63,302 bases of DNA from an uncultured Bacilli bacterium (GTDB lineage Bacteria > Bacillota_I > Bacilli_A > RF39 > UBA660): contig CANRDF010000004.1 of NCBI GenBank assembly GCA_947629255.1, positions 1-63,302 of the forward strand, read 5' to 3'. A program made the translations under genes and the position numbers. Below, in pieces: positions 5,892 through 48,102 of the stretch (position 1 is its first letter; every line of letters starts with the position of its first letter). The notes under the pieces are model-generated. The model had not been told where the DNA came from. It did not search any database and was given only the letters and a program-made list of their open reading frames with translations.

Positions 5892-6725
5892 ATGGATTTA
5901 TTAGAGAATTTATATAATATCGAGAATTTTGGTATTTATTTGTTTATTATTATAGGAGCGTTAATTGTATTGTTTCTTGTGATATTGTTTTTTGGTAAAA
6001 AAGATGAAAAGAAAAGAAAATTAGAAAAAACACAGCAAGTAGATGAGCAACCTACAGAAGAGAATAATGTTTCAGTAATACCAGAAACAGTTTCAGATAA
6101 TACGGAAGTAGTTTCTTCTGCTCAAGAAATGTATAAAACAGAAGAAAATTCGACACCTCCTTTAGAAACAAATGAACATGAAGAACAAATGCCATTCAAA
6201 GAAATTGAAGAACCTACACAGCCAGTGGAAATTCCAACGCCAGTTTTAGAAAAACCAACTGTTCCTGATTTAGCAAGTGTGGCATTAAGTCAAATTGAAG
6301 AAGAACAAAAAGAAAGTACTCCAGTAGAGCCTAAACAAGAAGAAAAAATAGAAGAGCCAAAAATAGAAAAAGAATTTGATTTTGATGCTTTAGCAGATGC
6401 AATTAATAAAGAATTAGCAAGTATTGAAAAACCAGAAGAATCTGTTGTAACACCTGTGTTGCCAAAAGAAGAAGAAGCTCCACTTCAATATTCTGTAGTA
6501 GAAGAAGAAAAACCTGTATCTGTGGAATCAGCATTACAAACTAATTCAGTTGAGATGCCAAAGACTGAGAAAAAAGTAATGCCAACTGTATTTAGTTCTG
6601 TATATGTAAATCGTGAAAAAGAAGAACCAATTGTGATGCCAAAGGAAGAAAAAGTTGCAGAACCAGTCGCACCAAAGATTGAACTTCCAAAAACGATTGA
6701 GTTACCAAAAAAGAATAATGAATAA
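5892..6725 (+). CDS. Hypothetical membrane-anchored Glu/Pro-rich protein
   Basis: Single N-terminal TM followed by a low-complexity acidic region; own TTGACT...TGATAT promoter-like site. Confidence 0.75.
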   Translation: MDLLENLYNIENFGIYLFIIIGALIVLFLVILFFGKKDEKKRKLEKTQQVDEQPTEENNVSVIPETVSDNTEVVSSAQEMYKTEENSTPPLETNEHEEQMPFKEIEEPTQPVEIPTPVLEKPTVPDLASVALSQIEEEQKESTPVEPKQEEKIEEPKIEKEFDFDALADAINKELASIEKPEESVVTPVLPKEEEAPLQYSVVEEEKPVSVESALQTNSVEMPKTEKKVMPTVFSSVYVNREKEEPIVMPKEEKVAEPVAPKIELPKTIELPKKNNE

Positions 6726-6810
6726 ATGATGTAAACGAGTTGTCAATTGACACTCTTTTTTTCATATTTTTATGTGAATGTGCTATAATACAAGCAAGGA
6801 AGCGAGTTAT

Positions 6811-7974
6811 ATGAAAATATTTAATAAACAATCTGATAAAGTGAATATGGAAGAGGTCAATGAAGTTGTTAGTTTATCTAAAAAAATCTTAAGATTATTT
6901 TATATTGCTATGGTGATCGCGATGGTTCTTATCGTAACGATTATTGCAAGAGAGTGGGGAGTATGGAAATTTTTATTTAGTATCTTAAGTGTTTTAGCCC
7001 CTTTCTTTATAGGATTTGTTTTGGCTTGGATTTTTAATCCCTTAGTTACAAAATTGGAAAAGAAAAAAATTCCTAGAATTGTTGGAGCAATGATTGTTTA
7101 TGCTGTTTTTATTGCAATTCTTGCTTTATTTATTCGCTTTTTAATTCCCGTTATTTATGAACAAGTTCAAATATTAATTGGAAACTTACCAAGTATCTTT
7201 AAAGAATTAGAAGGTGTAATTAATTCTATTTTTAGTCGTTTAGGAACGATTGAGGGAATTGATTTTAATTCGATCAAAGATCAGATTATTATGACTGTTA
7301 CAACAGGAATGAATAGTTTTATGACATCTGTTCCGACGATGCTTATGAATTTTATTGGAACTCTTTTCTCTAGTTTAATAACAATTACTTTTGGACTTGT
7401 GATTGGCCTTTATATGCTTATTGATTTTGATTCTATTAATGGACATTTACTTCAATTATTACCTAAAAAACATCGTTTTGAAGCTTCTTTATTAATTACA
7501 AATATTTCTACAGAAGTCAGAAAAAGTGTCAACGGAACTCTTTTAGTTGCTTTAATGGTCTTTGTTTGTGATGGAATAGGTTTCTGGGTTGTTGGGTTAC
7601 AAGCGCCAATTCTTTTTGGACTTTTATGTGGAATCACGGATTTAATTCCATATATTGGACCTTATATTGGAGGTATCATCGCGGTTGTAGTAGGGTTTGC
7701 CCAAAGTCCACTTATCGGTTTCTTAACTTTAATTGTCGCGGTTGTTGTTCAACTTGTTGAAAATAATATTTTACAACCTATTGTTATGAGTAAAACGATG
7801 AAACTGCATCCAGTCACAATTATTGTTGGATTGCTTATCTTTGAACATTTCTTTGGGATTATAGGAATGATTTTAGCAACTCCTTGTATTGCACTTGCTA
7901 AAGTTGTTTGGAAATTCTTTAAAGAAAAATATAACTTATTTAAAGATAACGACTACGTATCTCAAGAAGAATAG
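6811..7974 (+). CDS. AI-2E family transporter
   Basis: LIPYIGPYIG, QLVENNILQPIVM, LHPVTII, GIIGMILATP motifs. Confidence 0.92.
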   Translation: MKIFNKQSDKVNMEEVNEVVSLSKKILRLFYIAMVIAMVLIVTIIAREWGVWKFLFSILSVLAPFFIGFVLAWIFNPLVTKLEKKKIPRIVGAMIVYAVFIAILALFIRFLIPVIYEQVQILIGNLPSIFKELEGVINSIFSRLGTIEGIDFNSIKDQIIMTVTTGMNSFMTSVPTMLMNFIGTLFSSLITITFGLVIGLYMLIDFDSINGHLLQLLPKKHRFEASLLITNISTEVRKSVNGTLLVALMVFVCDGIGFWVVGLQAPILFGLLCGITDLIPYIGPYIGGIIAVVVGFAQSPLIGFLTLIVAVVVQLVENNILQPIVMSKTMKLHPVTIIVGLLIFEHFFGIIGMILATPCIALAKVVWKFFKEKYNLFKDNDYVSQEE

Positions 7975-34407: not shown

Positions 34408-34500
34408 AGTAAGGAGGTATAAAAGGAGAGAAGTGGTAAAAAATCAAAATATAATTTTTTCCTACTTGAATTTTTATTTTATTTTTGATATACTGTATAC

Positions 34501-34609
34501 AGATGGAGGAAACTTCATAAAATAAAAAGGAAGCATTTCAGTTTAGCTATGCTGAATGTCTACCTATAAAGAGTATAGACATTTACATTTTTGTAAGTGT
34601 CATTTTTTT
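34501..34609 (+). ncRNA. Putative antisense antitoxin RNA A
   Basis: Promoter TTGAAT(34466)-N17-TATACT(34489); 5' hairpin ATGGAG-GAAA-CTTCAT; terminator GACATTTACA-tttt-TGTAAGTGTC-A-T7; overlaps the peptide stop and 3' UTR. Confidence 0.7.
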
Positions 34610-34695
34610 ATTAGGAAAATAATTAATATGATTTCCCATAATATGGTGATTACATACTGCAAGACTTTTAAACGATATATATGTCTTTTCGTCAT
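34600..34695 (-). CDS. Putative type I toxin peptide A (31 aa)
   Basis: MTKRHIYRLKVLQYVITILWEIILIIFLIKK; AAAGGGGTG RBS; promoter TTGCTA-N17-TAATAT (34810-34782); homolog at 46499. Confidence 0.75.
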   Translation of the reverse strand: MTKRHIYRLKVLQYVITILWEIILIIFLIKK

Positions 34696-34841
34696 ATTCA
34701 TCACACCCCTTTCTTCTTTAAATTTTGTTATAGAGAGAAGAAAGTGGTAGACACTCAGCAACTAAAATGCTTCCTATGAACATATTAGCACACTTTTATA
34801 ATATTAGCAAGCAAAAAAATGATAATTATCTACTGAAAATA

Positions 34842-44341: not shown

Positions 44342-45013
44342 ATGAAAAAATTACCCTCGGTAAAGTTAATCGTATTAGCTTTGACCGTTATTGGATGTTT
44401 AGAATTTTTAGTAAATCGTTTAGAAGATGTCATCTTAGTGACTTTTGAAAGTGGAATTACAACTTCAGGAAATTTCTTATATGAAACGATTTTGATGAAA
44501 AATCAAAAAAATGAATTAAACAGCCAAGAAAATATTGAAAATATAGAACAACAAATTGAAATTATTAGTTTGAAAGCTACCACACCAGAACCTATTGTAT
44601 ATGATGGTATGACGATGGCAGAGCTTACAGACAAACTAAATTTAAGTTTACATAGTGATTTAGCTGGATATGGAAGTAGTTTTGCAAAATATTCTTTGGA
44701 ATATGGAGTAGATCCTTATTTAGCTGTATCAATTACTTTACTAGAAACAGGTTGTAAATGGAATTGTAGTGCTTTAGTACGTAAATGTAACAATGTTGGT
44801 GGAATGAAAGGACCTGGAAGATGTAATGGTGGGTCTTATGATACGTTTGAAAGCTTAGATGCTGGAATCGAAGCAATGATCAGAAACCTTTCTAAAAATT
44901 ATATTCAAAAAGGAATTGTAACACCAGAACAAATTAATAAAAAGTATGCGGAAAGTACAACTTGGGCTACAAAAGTAAATAAATACATCCAAGAAGTGAA
45001 AAATGCTGTCTAA
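44342..45013 (+). CDS. Glucosaminidase (GH73/lysozyme-like) domain protein
   Basis: YGVDPYLAVSITLLETG, NNVGGM, FESLDAGI, INKKYA...WATKV. Confidence 0.8.
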   Translation: MKKLPSVKLIVLALTVIGCLEFLVNRLEDVILVTFESGITTSGNFLYETILMKNQKNELNSQENIENIEQQIEIISLKATTPEPIVYDGMTMAELTDKLNLSLHSDLAGYGSSFAKYSLEYGVDPYLAVSITLLETGCKWNCSALVRKCNNVGGMKGPGRCNGGSYDTFESLDAGIEAMIRNLSKNYIQKGIVTPEQINKKYAESTTWATKVNKYIQEVKNAV

Positions 45014-45079
45014 AACAAGGGAAATCTTGTTTTTTTCATGTCTTTTCGTTATAATAGTAATAGAAAGAAGTGAATAAAA

Positions 45080-45796
45080 GTGAAGAAAGAAAACTGGGTG
45101 TTAATAGGTTTACTAGGTGTGATTGTAGTGATTGCTTGTGTGTGTGCCTTCTTTGCTTTTCAAAATAGAGAAACGGAAGAAAAGGATGCAATAAAAATAA
45201 AGGAAGAATATGGTTCTTTGAATGGTCAAGTAAATGAAAATAATAAAAAAGAATATCCTGTTGTAGAACTTGATGATGACAATCCTTTTGTATATAAAAC
45301 AGAAGAAGAAATTGTAAAGATTTTAGAAAGTGGGTCTGGCATTATTTATTTTGGTTTTCCAACTTGTCCTTGGTGTCGAACTATACTGCCAATTTTAGAG
45401 GAGGCAGCTAAAGAAGAAAGTATTGGTGAGATTTATTACTTAAATATCAAAGACATTCGTTCTACTCTTGCTTTAGATGAAAATGATAAAGTGATTACTC
45501 AAAAAGAGGGTAGTGCCAATTATTATAAAATATTAGATTTATTAAAAGATTATTTAAGTGATTATACTTTATATGATTCCAAAGGAAAAAGTATTGAGAC
45601 CAATGAAAAAAGACTTTATGCTCCCACCATTGTAGCAGTTCAAGGTGGGAAGATTAAAGCATTTCATGAGGGAACTGTAGATGCACAAGAAACAGGGTAT
45701 GAAACATTGTCCGATAGTGACCGAGAAAAACTTAAAAATACTTTAAAAGAATTATTAAATTCAATCAGTTTAGATGTTTGTACGGATGCATGTTAA
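45080..45796 (+). CDS. Membrane-anchored thioredoxin-fold protein (CPWC)
   Basis: N-terminal TM, IIYFGFPTCPWCR, YAPTIV. Confidence 0.82.
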   Translation: MKKENWVLIGLLGVIVVIACVCAFFAFQNRETEEKDAIKIKEEYGSLNGQVNENNKKEYPVVELDDDNPFVYKTEEEIVKILESGSGIIYFGFPTCPWCRTILPILEEAAKEESIGEIYYLNIKDIRSTLALDENDKVITQKEGSANYYKILDLLKDYLSDYTLYDSKGKSIETNEKRLYAPTIVAVQGGKIKAFHEGTVDAQETGYETLSDSDREKLKNTLKELLNSISLDVCTDAC

Positions 45797-45831
45797 GAAA
45801 AGTAAGTATAGCTTTTCTTTTTCTTTATGAC

Positions 45832-45942
45832 AAAAAATGACACTTACAAGCAATTGTAAATGTCGTAAATCCATATAGGTAGGCATTCAGTAATGGAAAA
45901 CTGAATACTTCCTTTTTTAATTTTATGAAGTTTCCTTCATCT
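45832..45942 (-). ncRNA. Putative antisense RNA B (orphan, no cognate peptide gene)
   Basis: Promoter TTGAAA(45977)-N17-TATACT(45954); ATGAAG-GAAA-CTTCAT hairpin; GACATTTACAA/TTGTAAGTGTC terminator plus T-run. Confidence 0.62.
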
Positions 45943-46105
45943 GTATACAGTATATCAAAAATGAGATAAAATTTCAAGTAGGAAAATATCATTTTTTGCT
46001 TGCTAATATTATAAATGTATGCTAATATGTTTGTAGGAAGTTTTTTAGAAAAACTGGGTGCCTTTTCACCTATCGGCTATGATAAGCTCGAGGAGGTGAT
46101 GAGCC

Positions 46106-46222
46106 ATGGATAAGCGAAGAACTTTTGTAATAAAGATTTTCAAATATCTATTAGCACTTGCTACATTATTTACAATATGCTTTTTAGCATTTTTGTACGT
46201 AATGATGCAAAAAGGCACTTAA
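46106..46222 (+). CDS. Putative type I toxin peptide C (38 aa)
   Basis: MDKRRTFVIKIFKYLLALATLFTICFLAFLYVMMQKGT; AGGAGGTGA RBS; promoter TTGCTA(46000)-N17-TAATAT(46023). Confidence 0.75.
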   Translation: MDKRRTFVIKIFKYLLALATLFTICFLAFLYVMMQKGT

Positions 46223-46325
46223 TAAAATTCAAATAGAATCTTATTAAATGCCTGACTATAGGTGAGGCATTCAGCGGCTATTCTGAAATACCTTCCTTTT
46301 TTATTTTATGAAGTTTCCTCCATCT
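46209..46325 (-). ncRNA. Putative antisense antitoxin RNA C
   Basis: Promoter TTGAAT(46360)-N17-TATACT(46337); GAAA hairpin; terminator AGGCATTTAATAA.../TTATTAAGTGCCT-TTTT. Confidence 0.68.
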
Positions 46326-46498
46326 GTATACAGTATATCAAAAATAAAATAAAAATTCAAGTGGCAAAAAATAATATTTTTGCTTGCTAATATTATAAAA
46401 GTGTGTTAATATGTTTGCAGGAAGCATTTTAGTTGCTGAGTGTCTACCACTTTCTTCTCTCTATAACAAAATTTAAAGAAGAAAGGGGTGTGATGTAT

Positions 46499-46594
46499 AT
46501 GAGTCAAAACAGGAAATTTATACTTCAAATATTTGATTACATTATCACAATATTATGGCAAGTAATATTTATTCTTTCCATAATAAAGAAATGA
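46499..46594 (+). CDS. Putative type I toxin peptide D (31 aa)
   Basis: MSQNRKFILQIFDYIITILWQVIFILSIIKK; AAAGGGGTG RBS; promoter TTGCTA(46384)-N17-TAATAT(46407). Confidence 0.75.
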   Translation: MSQNRKFILQIFDYIITILWQVIFILSIIKK

Positions 46595-46696
46595 CACTTA
46601 CAAGTAAATTGTAAATGTCTCCAATCTTTTTCGGTAGGCATTCAGTGTGCAAAACTGAAATGCTTCCTTTTTTATTATATGAAGTTTCCTTCATCT
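46585..46696 (-). ncRNA. Putative antisense antitoxin RNA D
   Basis: Promoter TTGAAT(46731)-N17-TATACT(46708); GAAA hairpin; GACATTTACAA/TTGTAAGTGTC terminator. Confidence 0.68.
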
Positions 46697-46821
46697 ATAT
46701 ACAGTATACCAAAAATAAATATAAAATTCAAGTAGGAAAAAGTGATTTTAAAACTTTTTGTTTCTTCTTGAGAAATCAAATGATTTCTTTTATAATAGAG
46801 TTTAAGAAAGAGGTGAGAGTT

Positions 46822-48102
46822 ATGAACATCTCGTTACTACCAGCAGATAAATATATTGTACTTAATAAAACACTTCTTACAGAATTAGATTGTAAATATT
46901 TAGTAAGTCTTTATGAACCTATTATTGGCTCCAATGCAGTCAGTTTATATATGACTTTATGGAGAGACTTAGAGCGTTATAATTCTGTAAGTACCGATTA
47001 CTCTCATCATCACCTTATGACTCTGTTAAAAATGAATTTAGAATCCATTAAAATGGCTCGTAAAACATTGGAAGCTGTTGGATTATTAAAAACTTATTAT
47101 GAAGCAGGGGAACCAAGTAACTATGTCTATGAATTATATTCACCTATGACTCCAAAAGAGTTTTTTGCAAATCCTATTTTTAATGTTGTTTTATACAATA
47201 ACATCGGGGCGAAAGAATATGACTTATTAAAACAAGAATTTTCCGTTTTACCGTTTTCTTTCAAAGACTATATAGAAATTACGACACCTTTTGATGAGCT
47301 CTTTAAATCATCCAGTGATTCTGTTTCCTTTGAGGCGATTGGAAGAGAAGTTTTACCGATTACTATGCAAGACCAAGTAGATTTTGATTTACTGATTTCT
47401 AGTTTGCCAAGAGGAATGGTAACTGAAAAAACACTTACCAAAAAAATGAAAGAACTTATCAATAACTTAGCGTTGGTTTATGATTTAGATACTTTAAAAA
47501 TGTGTGAAATTATAAGATTATGTATGAATGAAAAAGGTGCGATTGACAAAGAAGAACTACGAATTCAAACAAGAAAATATTATCAATATAATCATCATGG
47601 AAAATTACCAACTCTTATTTATCGGTCTCAACCTGATTATTTAAAAGACCCAGTCGGGGATACATCAAAAAAAGGAAAGATTATTGAAGTTTTTGAAAAT
47701 ACAACACCTTATGATTTTCTTCGAAGTAAATATCATACAGGAAGTCCCACAAATAGGGATTTAAGACTTATTGAATATTTATTGGTCGATGTTGGATTAC
47801 AGCCGGCTGTATGTAATGTGCTCATTGATTATGTTCTTAAAAAAAATAATAATAAATTAAATAGTTCTTTTGTAGAAACGATTGCTGGTCAGTGGAAACG
47901 AATCGGGGTTCAAACAGCAAAAGATGCGATGGCATTAGCCGAGAAAGAACATAAAAGAATGATGAATAAATTAAATAAAGTAAGTAATAAACCTGTCTCT
48001 AATGATGTACCAGTATGGTTTAATGAAAAGATTGAAAAAGAGGGTATGACAGAGGAAGAATCAAATGAACTTGAAAGTATGTTAAGTAAATATAAAGATT
48101 AG
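46822..48102 (+). CDS. dnaB: Replication initiation / helicase loader DnaB (Bacilli type)
   Basis: LYEPIIG..AVSLY, LEAVGLLKTY, YELYSP, NVLIDYVL, IAGQW; AGGTGA RBS before ATG 46822; precedes dnaI. Confidence 0.9.
   Translation: MNISLLPADKYIVLNKTLLTELDCKYLVSLYEPIIGSNAVSLYMTLWRDLERYNSVSTDYSHHHLMTLLKMNLESIKMARKTLEAVGLLKTYYEAGEPSNYVYELYSPMTPKEFFANPIFNVVLYNNIGAKEYDLLKQEFSVLPFSFKDYIEITTPFDELFKSSSDSVSFEAIGREVLPITMQDQVDFDLLISSLPRGMVTEKTLTKKMKELINNLALVYDLDTLKMCEIIRLCMNEKGAIDKEELRIQTRKYYQYNHHGKLPTLIYRSQPDYLKDPVGDTSKKGKIIEVFENTTPYDFLRSKYHTGSPTNRDLRLIEYLLVDVGLQPAVCNVLIDYVLKKNNNKLNSSFVETIAGQWKRIGVQTAKDAMALAEKEHKRMMNKLNKVSNKPVSNDVPVWFNEKIEKEGMTEEESNELESMLSKYKD

Follow-up and report, generated by a model that had tools for sequence, protein, structure and literature searches.

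The 63,302-nt stretch analysed here (hereafter the window) comprises positions 1 to 63,302 of contig CANRDF010000004.1 from assembly GCA_947629255.1, which stems from an uncultured Bacilli bacterium of the GTDB lineage Bacillota_I, Bacilli_A, RF39, UBA660. The host assembly measures 1.59 Mb in 103 contigs, has a G+C content of 30% and is 93.6% complete. Upstream of dnaB, the gap between a 238-aa open reading frame (ORF) that ends at 45796 and the DnaB_2 gene (46822-48099) is filled by tandem modules, each complete one of which is composed of a sense promoter of the extended -10 type, a leader in which the ribosome-binding site (RBS) is sequestered, an ORF for a hydrophobic peptide of 31-38 aa, and a convergent antisense RNA gene of 112-121 nt. 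The array spans 45818-46745 and consists of one antisense-only copy and two complete modules. Each unit is probably a chromosomal type I toxin-antitoxin (TA)-like module without a name in the libraries searched, in which the two RNAs overlap at their 3' sides and the 5' end of the toxin mRNA is locked to its 3' end.

The features of the array and of a fourth module elsewhere in the window are listed below. R1 denotes a covariance model trained on 11 antisense RNA copies of the host genome, and as0, as1, and as2 are the antisense RNA genes of the array.

45828..45942, minus strand: as0, orphan antisense RNA gene of 115 nt (R1 score 122.6 bits; three-hairpin fold)
45949..45977, minus strand: as0 promoter, TTGAAA-N17-TATACT with an upstream TG (consensus scan)
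46000..46028, plus strand: module 1 sense promoter, TTGCTA-N17-TAATAT with TGc before the -10 box (sequence reading and pattern match)
46035..46305, plus strand: predicted toxin mRNA of module 1 (type A), 5' end set 7 nt past the -10 box
46106..46222, plus strand: peptide A ORF, 38 aa plus stop, with a GGAGG RBS upstream, a basic N-terminus and one hydrophobic helix
46205..46325, minus strand: as1, antisense RNA gene of 121 nt (R1 score 81.5 bits)
46332..46360, minus strand: as1 promoter, TTGAAT-N17-TATACT with an upstream TG (consensus scan)
46384..46412, plus strand: module 2 sense promoter, TTGCTA-N17-TAATAT (sequence reading and pattern match)
46419..46676, plus strand: predicted toxin mRNA of module 2 (type B; duplex prediction)
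46499..46594, plus strand: peptide B ORF, 31 aa plus stop, or 33 aa if the start is 46493, with a GGAGG/AGGGG-type RBS upstream
46585..46696, minus strand: as2, antisense RNA gene of 112 nt (R1 score 119 bits)
46703..46731, minus strand: as2 promoter, TTGAAT-N17-TATACT with an upstream TG (consensus scan)
45864-45839, 46253-46213, and 46619-46593, minus strand: terminators of the antisense genes (terminator scan)
34456-34823, other strand relative to the array: fourth module
34516..34810, minus strand: toxin side of the fourth module, sense promoter 34810-34782, mRNA from ~34775 to ~34520
34695-34600, minus strand: peptide of the fourth module, B-type ORF, 31 aa plus stop (ORF and pattern match)
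34466..34613, plus strand: antisense side of the fourth module, promoter TTGAAT-N17-TATACT at 34466-34494, RNA gene 34501-34613 (R1 score 117.2 bits)

At the nucleotide level, the array is built from a 102-nt block that occurs three times (45894-45995, 46277-46378, and 46648-46749; 78-80% identity, spacings of 383 and 371 nt) and a 56-nt promoter/leader block that occurs twice (45993-46048 and 46377-46432; 89% identity). A 31-nt core, allowing at most three mismatches, is found at four places in the window and was found at none in 100 shuffles; its fourth match lies on the opposite strand at 34489-34519. The sense-promoter pattern has three matches in the window. The consensus scan revealed three minus-strand promoters, in all of which a TG precedes the -10 box at a distance of one base, and three minus-strand terminators, where 0.4 are expected. 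The sense promoters are absent from the list of the consensus scanner because only 8 of 12 consensus positions match. Within module 1, the terminator stem of as1 comprises 18 bp and sits over the stop codon of peptide A. Within module 2, as2 is composed of a 5' hairpin with a GAAA loop and a stretch complementary to the mRNA terminator, followed by a terminator of its own that covers the stop codon of peptide B.

The elements that an earlier, sequence-only reading of this DNA had described are present where it placed them. Its sense promoter TTGCTA-N17-TAATAT is seen at 46000-46028 and 46384-46412, the convergent TTGAA(T/A)-N17-TATACT promoters with their own terminator over the peptide stop were recovered by the consensus scan of the minus strand, and the 17-bp spacing indeed holds for all seven promoters, three sense and four antisense. 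The peptides of 31-38 aa correspond to the ORFs 46106-46219 (38 aa) and 46499-46591 (31 aa). The claim of three repeats in the gap needs to be divided: three antisense copies exist there, of which only two belong to complete modules. For the copy at 45818-45986, neither a sense promoter nor, in an ORF search of its flank, an intact RBS-preceded ORF was found. This copy being antisense-only, the gap is best described as two complete modules plus one orphan, in which a remnant of ~25 nt of the peptide 3' end abuts the 238-aa ORF ending at 45796.

The antisense RNA genes measure 108-121 nt, and each of the 11 host copies folds into three hairpins: one at the 5' end capped by GAAA, one in the middle that is complementary to the mRNA terminator, and a 3' terminator over the peptide stop. 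In all, 103 unique R1 matches were collected from the host genome and from 60 fetched regions of relatives. In these 103 distinct copies 95.6% of the cells are paired, as compared to 34-44% with slid partners, in an alignment that was fitted to R1 itself and therefore favours high pairing; 22 of the 23 base pairs change on both sides. The predicted antisense RNA and mRNA 3' end overlap by ~90 nt, with full complementarity to the last codons and the whole 3' untranslated region (UTR). According to the ORF listing, the toxin stop codon is positioned between 1 nt outside and 29 nt inside the antisense 3' end.

The search with a covariance model against the genome and its relatives, which the sequence-only reading had proposed, revealed 11 places in the host genome and a wide distribution in the family. 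Apart from the host, the genomes covered were 36 of the same genus, 149 of the same family, and 24 that belong to 17 other families within the class. R1 matches occur in 28 of the 36 and in 80 of the 149 (in 50 of 86 genera, the window's own included), and in none of the 24. One genome of 1.4 Mb holds 22 matches; 21 of these places were fetched, and all 21 were matched again. A scan with an exact pattern, one genome per species, retrieved at least 119 stretches, nearly all of them from gut metagenomes, in bins whose titles read uncultured Bacilli or Tenericutes, with carriers that include Candidatus Coprosoma, Candidatus Ventrenecus, and Mycoplasma sp. CAG:877.

True R1 matches (39-67 bits) were also observed on records titled Muribaculaceae, Roseburia sp., Clostridium sp., and Clostridia, in stretches of 22-36% G+C. 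These off-lineage records suggest either mis-binned or mislabelled contigs or a range wider than the family-level search shows.

Partner ORFs were counted only for antisense genes whose flank on the toxin side extends to 250 nt or more, which holds for 92. Of these, 69 face an RBS-preceded ORF of 25-43 aa that terminates within the antisense terminator zone. Among 65 distinct peptides, 62 are transmembrane-like (mean hydropathy of at least 2.0 in a 17-aa window; median 3.16), and 57 of these 62 hydrophobic peptides have a net positive N-terminus. Most end on K or KK. The window types A and B align gaplessly to the peptides of relatives, and the common pattern reads M-x-K-R-x-F-[IV]-[IL]-[KQ]-[VL]-[LF]-[KR]-Y-I…IKK; the Tyr14 noted in the sequence-only reading is part of it. 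Among the copies, the stop codon at the same place is TAA, TGA, or TAG. With a ratio of nonsynonymous to synonymous polymorphism (pN/pS) of 0.28, computed from 97 same-length, non-independent pairs, the peptides appear to be under purifying selection as judged in silico. A 25-aa subtype is common in relatives. On the host contig C66 (positions 6516-6846), a distant member with a 25-aa peptide of the MTKREF… type was observed, whose antisense match reaches only 31.5 bits; the host genome thus has at least four peptide subtypes.

Database searches left the family unplaced, as the sequence-only reading had anticipated, with Pfam, NCBIfam, Rfam, and PDB giving no relevant match. Five peptides compared with Pfam and NCBIfam at E-values up to 10 returned nothing relevant and no toxin family, and a PDB profile search with the peptide returned no match. 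An Rfam scan of 44500-47500 at E-values up to 10 gave only four chance matches to snoRNA models, far below threshold. Public protein sets barely show the family: among 1.84 billion representative proteins, 51 match at E-values up to 1e-3, the longer ones being TGA read-through miscalls; none of the 10 public peptide copies looked up bears a name, and the best protein atlas score, 0.81, lies below the lead level of 0.9.

The weak neighbours in that atlas, an 'Inner membrane protein' and a YoaK-family cluster at 0.78-0.81, point to another view of the peptides, namely as common small membrane proteins without toxicity, for instance regulators of membrane complexes or factors that stabilise them, which are tuned by a cis-antisense RNA and form no TA system. 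Purifying selection is compatible with this view, as are the resemblance to many harmless small membrane proteins and the location of the modules among housekeeping genes. It is quite unlikely, however, given up to 22 matches in a single genome of 1.4 Mb, the tandem arrays, the many divergent paralogous subtypes per genome, and the 23 of 92 antisense genes that are orphan or degraded. Nor is the position maintained: a conserved site upstream of dnaB was considered and rejected, as only one of 29 other species whose dnaB locus was fetched has a copy within 1.5 kb, in opposite orientation. The site not being conserved, the modules come and go. The sequestered RBS, the antisense RNA and the closed mRNA, moreover, fit addiction-type modules better.

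A TA-like module is also the framework in which we describe the pairing between the mRNA ends. Whatever the subtype, the 5'-terminal ~30 nt of the predicted mRNA form a duplex with its 3' end. The first paired base of this lock coincides with the predicted transcription start, just past the -10 box, or is a few nt away from it. The leader divides its pairing between the two terminator arms: its first half binds the 3' arm together with the bases that precede the U-tract, and its second half binds the 5' arm together with the bases in front of that arm. Since it pairs with both terminator arms, the leader amounts to a loop-less, wobble-degenerate copy of the antisense core. In module 1 the leader 46035-46066 is predicted to pair with 46262-46297. 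In module 2, nt 1-30 of the mRNA (46419-46448) pair with 46633-46668, which comprises both terminator arms and the bases before the U-tract, and a separate anti-RBS stretch (46450-46458) pairs with 46477-46485.

These predictions were assessed with 69 leader duplexes, 60 full-length mRNA folds and 34 leader clusters. The leader duplex has a median energy of -40.7 kcal/mol versus -23.9 kcal/mol for shuffled sequences, with z < -3 in 56 of 69 cases. When folded at minimum free energy (MFE), 59 of 60 mRNAs have 20 or more of their first 30 nt paired to the last 75 nt (median 25); by the same measure, not one of 60 shuffled leaders reaches 15 paired nt. Leaders prefer their cognate 3' ends over non-cognate ones (-36 vs -15.2 kcal/mol), the cognate end coming first in 21 of the 34 clusters and never below fourth place. 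A structure-blind MAFFT alignment of the 60 mRNAs yields an overall pairing of 72.9% as compared to 36-60% when slid; helix 3 is 92.8% paired on this alignment, and 12 of its 14 pairs have changed on both sides. Along this line, the lock appears in silico as a covarying and strand-specific structure, and it constitutes a new feature of the module family.

Strand specificity also bears on the question of whether the copies encode RNAs at all. At the DNA level, the lock is an imperfect inverted repeat of ~30 bp around ~200 bp, and multi-copy, dispersed elements at variable sites, at which metagenome contigs break, are what one would see with a non-coding repeat similar to miniature inverted-repeat transposable elements (MITE) or repetitive extragenic palindromes (REP), its promoters, ORFs and 'antisense RNA' being incidental. 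Such a repeat is highly improbable here. In 68 of 69 cases the sense strand gives a stronger lock than the opposite strand does; the lock contains 265 G-U pairs versus 6 A-C single mismatches, and it begins close to the predicted transcription start. The RBS-preceded ORFs, their transmembrane-like products and the low pN/pS point in the same direction, as does the fact that antisense promoter, three covarying hairpins and U-tract are all kept. Furthermore, no transposase was detected among eight flanking ORFs in a Pfam scan, in which target-site duplications were not looked for, and viral contigs contain no exact match of the core pattern.

Predicted folds of the TA-like mRNAs indicate what the lock does and does not cover. 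Across the 60 mRNAs, the RBS has a median unpaired probability of 0.06 and is sequestered by a local hairpin rather than by the lock; the first 10 nt have an unpaired probability of 0.03. Masking the antisense target in silico raises the unpaired probability of the 5' end from 0.03 to 0.44, with higher values in 57 of 60 mRNAs. The 5' end is also freed when 20-30 nt are removed from the mRNA 3' end in silico.

The full-length toxin mRNA of hok/Sok is closed by 5'-3' pairing, which makes it a stable, inert message. In AapA1, a long-distance interaction prevents both translation and antitoxin binding until 3' processing has occurred (PMC8167048). By this precedent, the lock found here could belong to a TA module of the hok/Sok and aapA1/IsoA1 kind, with an inert, antisense-blind mRNA whose slow 3' trimming, by which it would become accessible to translation or to the antisense RNA, serves as a delay timer; the lock would then not be an end protection that is undone by the antisense RNA. 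The lock covers the antisense target with both terminator arms, and the release of the 5' end by 3' shortening agrees with a timer as well. Such a timer is a live alternative, if a less likely one: in the folds of the window modules 3' truncation leaves the RBS unexposed, the local hairpin holds the RBS across all 60 mRNAs, and the stop-proximal half of the antisense target lies outside the lock, so that the antisense RNA could nucleate there.

Gene anatomy, conservation, covariation, coding constraint, and 5'-3' pairing are established in silico, whereas transcription, toxicity, neutralisation, the nuclease steps, and the state that is translated are inferred. A type I TA-like module with a lock would operate as follows. 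The constitutive-looking sense promoter would give rise to an mRNA of ~255 nt for a single-helix membrane peptide of 25-38 aa, the presumed toxin, with a Lys/Arg-rich N-terminus and mostly a K or KK end, and a local anti-Shine-Dalgarno hairpin would keep its translation low. The convergent promoter would deliver an antisense RNA of ~115 nt, the presumed antitoxin. Leader and terminator arms would close the mRNA into a panhandle that hides both of its ends and leaves a long-lived, poorly translated toxin message. The antisense RNA and the cis leader would compete for the same 3' site. Wherever the antisense RNA wins, a duplex of ~90 bp cleavable by RNase III would form, and the 5' end set free by antisense binding would be exposed to RNase J and RNase Y, so that the message would be destroyed. 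Once the labile antisense RNA is lost, the peptide would be made. The host genome encodes RNase III, RNase Y, and two copies of RNase J. We tentatively suggest, as one possibility that is less likely than not, that the mRNA carries its own antitoxin mimic and that the competition of cis mimic and trans antitoxin sets a closed, dormant message with protected ends against an open one that is degraded from either end. If the mimic idea is true, this regulatory logic would be one not described for any type I system, and it would exist in dozens of orthogonal variants per genome, family-wide, in uncultured gut Bacilli with genomes of ~1 Mb.

Several observations weigh against this reading of the modules. 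The RBS is predicted to remain sequestered with and without antisense RNA bound (0.05 vs 0.06; lower in 22 and higher in 8 of 60 mRNAs), and consequently no translation route is evident from the folds. The single mRNA that falls short in the MFE folds is the type A module of the window itself, which has 16 of 30 nt paired and the weakest lock. Helix 1, which forms the first half of the lock, is only 50.9% paired on the MAFFT alignment, which is visibly out of register at this position; we read the low value as a result of MAFFT register errors. The hairpin plus U-tract on the sense strand, part of the sequence-only reading, is real, and at the same time weak and bulged (-7.4 to -13.8 kcal/mol, z from -0.8 to -3.1), and it was not picked up by the terminator scan; the long-range helix abutting the U-tract may be the real terminator. 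Of the 92 antisense genes, 23 are without an intact partner ORF, and the low complexity of the peptides may bias pN/pS. Finally, the module copies are kin, and counts and p-values therefore overstate their independence.

A tightening of the RBS on antisense binding was considered in the light of SR4, whose binding at the mRNA 3' end alters the structure near the RBS (PMC8594479, PMC8167048). It was seen in the two type B modules of the window, in which masking of the target lowers RBS accessibility from 0.48 to 0.21 and from 0.31 to 0.18, and it was rejected as a general feature of the 60 mRNAs.

Antisense RNAs that overlap the 3' side are the rule among Gram-positive type I families (PMC8594479), and tandem duplication is a known hallmark (PMC2887945). 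Both traits recur in the present family, which we compare with known systems as the cited sources describe them. The closest arrangement is that of TxpA/RatA, BsrG/SR4, BsrE/SR5, and YonT/SR6 of B. subtilis, with convergent genes and an antisense RNA of ~100 nt over the 3' UTR and the ORF end. They share in addition the small hydrophobic peptide, the helix-held RBS, and an expected decay of the RNase III type. In contrast to these systems, the RNAs and peptides studied here match no library family, the peptides are shorter (25-38 aa, with a C-terminal tail of at most two residues in 46 of 62), and a leader that copies the antitoxin locks the mRNA ends, a trait that the available parts of PMC8594479 and PMC8167048 do not describe for them.

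Likeness to the Fst/RNA II system (par, pAD1) consists in convergent promoters, a Firmicute host, a 5' stem-loop that sequesters the RBS, and complementary terminator stem-loops at which the two RNAs make contact. The par/Fst systems are characterized by a 5' upstream helix (5'-UH) that hides and stabilises the RNA 5' end, an RBS stem-loop, a PXXXG(C) motif, and a shared terminator (PMC7472228). An intramolecular helix hides the extreme 5' end in Fst/Ldr as well as in our modules, where its partner is the 3' terminator region. The PXXXG(C) motif, however, occurs in 0 of 62 peptides, which bears out the earlier statement that the Fst motif is lacking, and the long charged C-terminal tail is missing, with at most two residues in 46 of 62. 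The two genes have separate terminators in place of one bidirectional terminator: the antisense RNA is predicted to continue past the complement of the mRNA terminator for another 60-70 nt, up to its own terminator at the stop codon, and the mRNA hairpin plus U-tract is located ~60 nt downstream of the latter. With ~115 nt, the antisense RNA is longer than the ~40 nt of Fst/Ldr. A second complementarity as provided by direct repeats in par, between the antisense 5' part and the translation start, was considered and rejected (cognate -7.2, non-cognate -7.2, shuffled -5.8 kcal/mol). Since motif, tail, shared terminator, and second complementarity are all missing, the family is not Fst/Ldr.

AapA1/IsoA1 of Helicobacter pylori and hok/Sok of plasmid R1 resemble the present modules in the pairing of the 5' end of the full-length mRNA with its 3' end. 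They differ in three respects: their antisense RNA is overlapped by the mRNA over its whole length and acts within the 5' part, whereas here it acts at the 3' end on the segment occupied by the leader; the long-distance pairing sequesters the RBS there, a local hairpin here; and their hosts are Proteobacteria. The CD…/RCd… systems of Clostridioides difficile, also from a gut Firmicute, combine small hydrophobic toxins with multi-copy cis-antisense RNAs (PMC5961336, PMC6563280); they are likened here by description only, the peptides of our modules having matched no library family. We found no described equivalent in the literature, which leaves aside the Fozo 2010 candidate tables and T1TAdb Table S1, where relatives may be listed.

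In summary of the comparison with the earlier interpretation, the observation is confirmed, and a type I TA-like system is supported by all in-silico tests, namely antisense anatomy, covariation, coding constraint, RBS sequestration, and multiple copies, as far as the sequence reaches. The wide distribution, the finding that the first copy is an orphan, and the conservation of the pairing between the mRNA ends go beyond it.

The range of type I systems is considered narrow, in part because they are hard to find (PMC12390103). Here, a large unnamed family was found by sequence alone in a lineage of which nothing but metagenome bins is known. For reduced genomes, up to 22 matches in 1.4 Mb amount to a heavy load and raise the question of purpose, be it genome stabilisation, phage defence, or selfish persistence. 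A lock on the antitoxin's own target, if true, extends mRNA dormancy of the hok/AapA1 type to Gram-positive systems with 3' overlap. The covarying leader/terminator pairs, finally, amount to dozens of naturally occurring RNA locks that are orthogonal to one another and of interest for the design of RNA devices.

Turning to the surroundings of the array, the neighbours, which were scanned against Pfam, are housekeeping genes: a glucosaminidase, a CxxC protein, DnaB_2 (PF07261), and a DnaI-like ATPase, with a P-type ATPase next to the fourth copy. The CxxC protein is the 238-aa ORF (45080-45796, plus strand), which has an N-terminal hydrophobic segment and a thioredoxin-like FPTCPWC motif; it has no Pfam match at E-values up to 0.001. 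The likely start of the DnaB_2 gene is the ATG at 46822, with the RBS GAGGTGAG just upstream. A 495-aa ORF from 46615 was dismissed as an artefactual upstream extension of this gene across as2.

The antisense genes of the host are distributed over the window (four), contig C26 (five), and contigs C91 and C102 (two). At C26:9149-10775 and C26:10812-12425, a paralogous array of the order orphan, A, B, B, and C was observed directly downstream of one RNase J paralogue. It is 88% identical to the window array over 916 nt, and both have the order orphan, A, and B; one array is thus a segmental copy of the other. At C91:1-431 and C102:2469-2660, contig ends break within type C modules, and the end of C102 continues into the start of C91. 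The assembly collapses at module repeats, and copy numbers are therefore lower bounds.

The reading of TGA has consequences for the annotation of the peptides. Genetic code 4, which would lengthen them, was considered and rejected for the host: 113 of 748 long frames end at a TGA past which the frame does not stay open, and TGA is consequently a true stop in this genome. Six public gene calls of 36-139 aa begin as the 30-aa peptide and continue with …IKKW…, which corresponds to TGA read as Trp. Code 4 was apparently used to call genes in bins labelled Tenericutes or Mycoplasma although TGA is a stop in the host, and gene calling with the Mycoplasma code has made false long proteins out of the peptides in public databases.

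In four gut metagenome contig sets, 5- to 20-fold peaks in summed depth were observed on the conserved block of antisense 5' hairpin and promoter, which together with contig ends fall on the following positions of the window.

45903-45969: depth peak with contig ends in the four contig sets
46305-46371: depth peak with contig ends in the four contig sets
46640-46706: depth peak with contig ends in the four contig sets

Such peaks are as expected for a high-copy repeat that is common to many organisms of the community.

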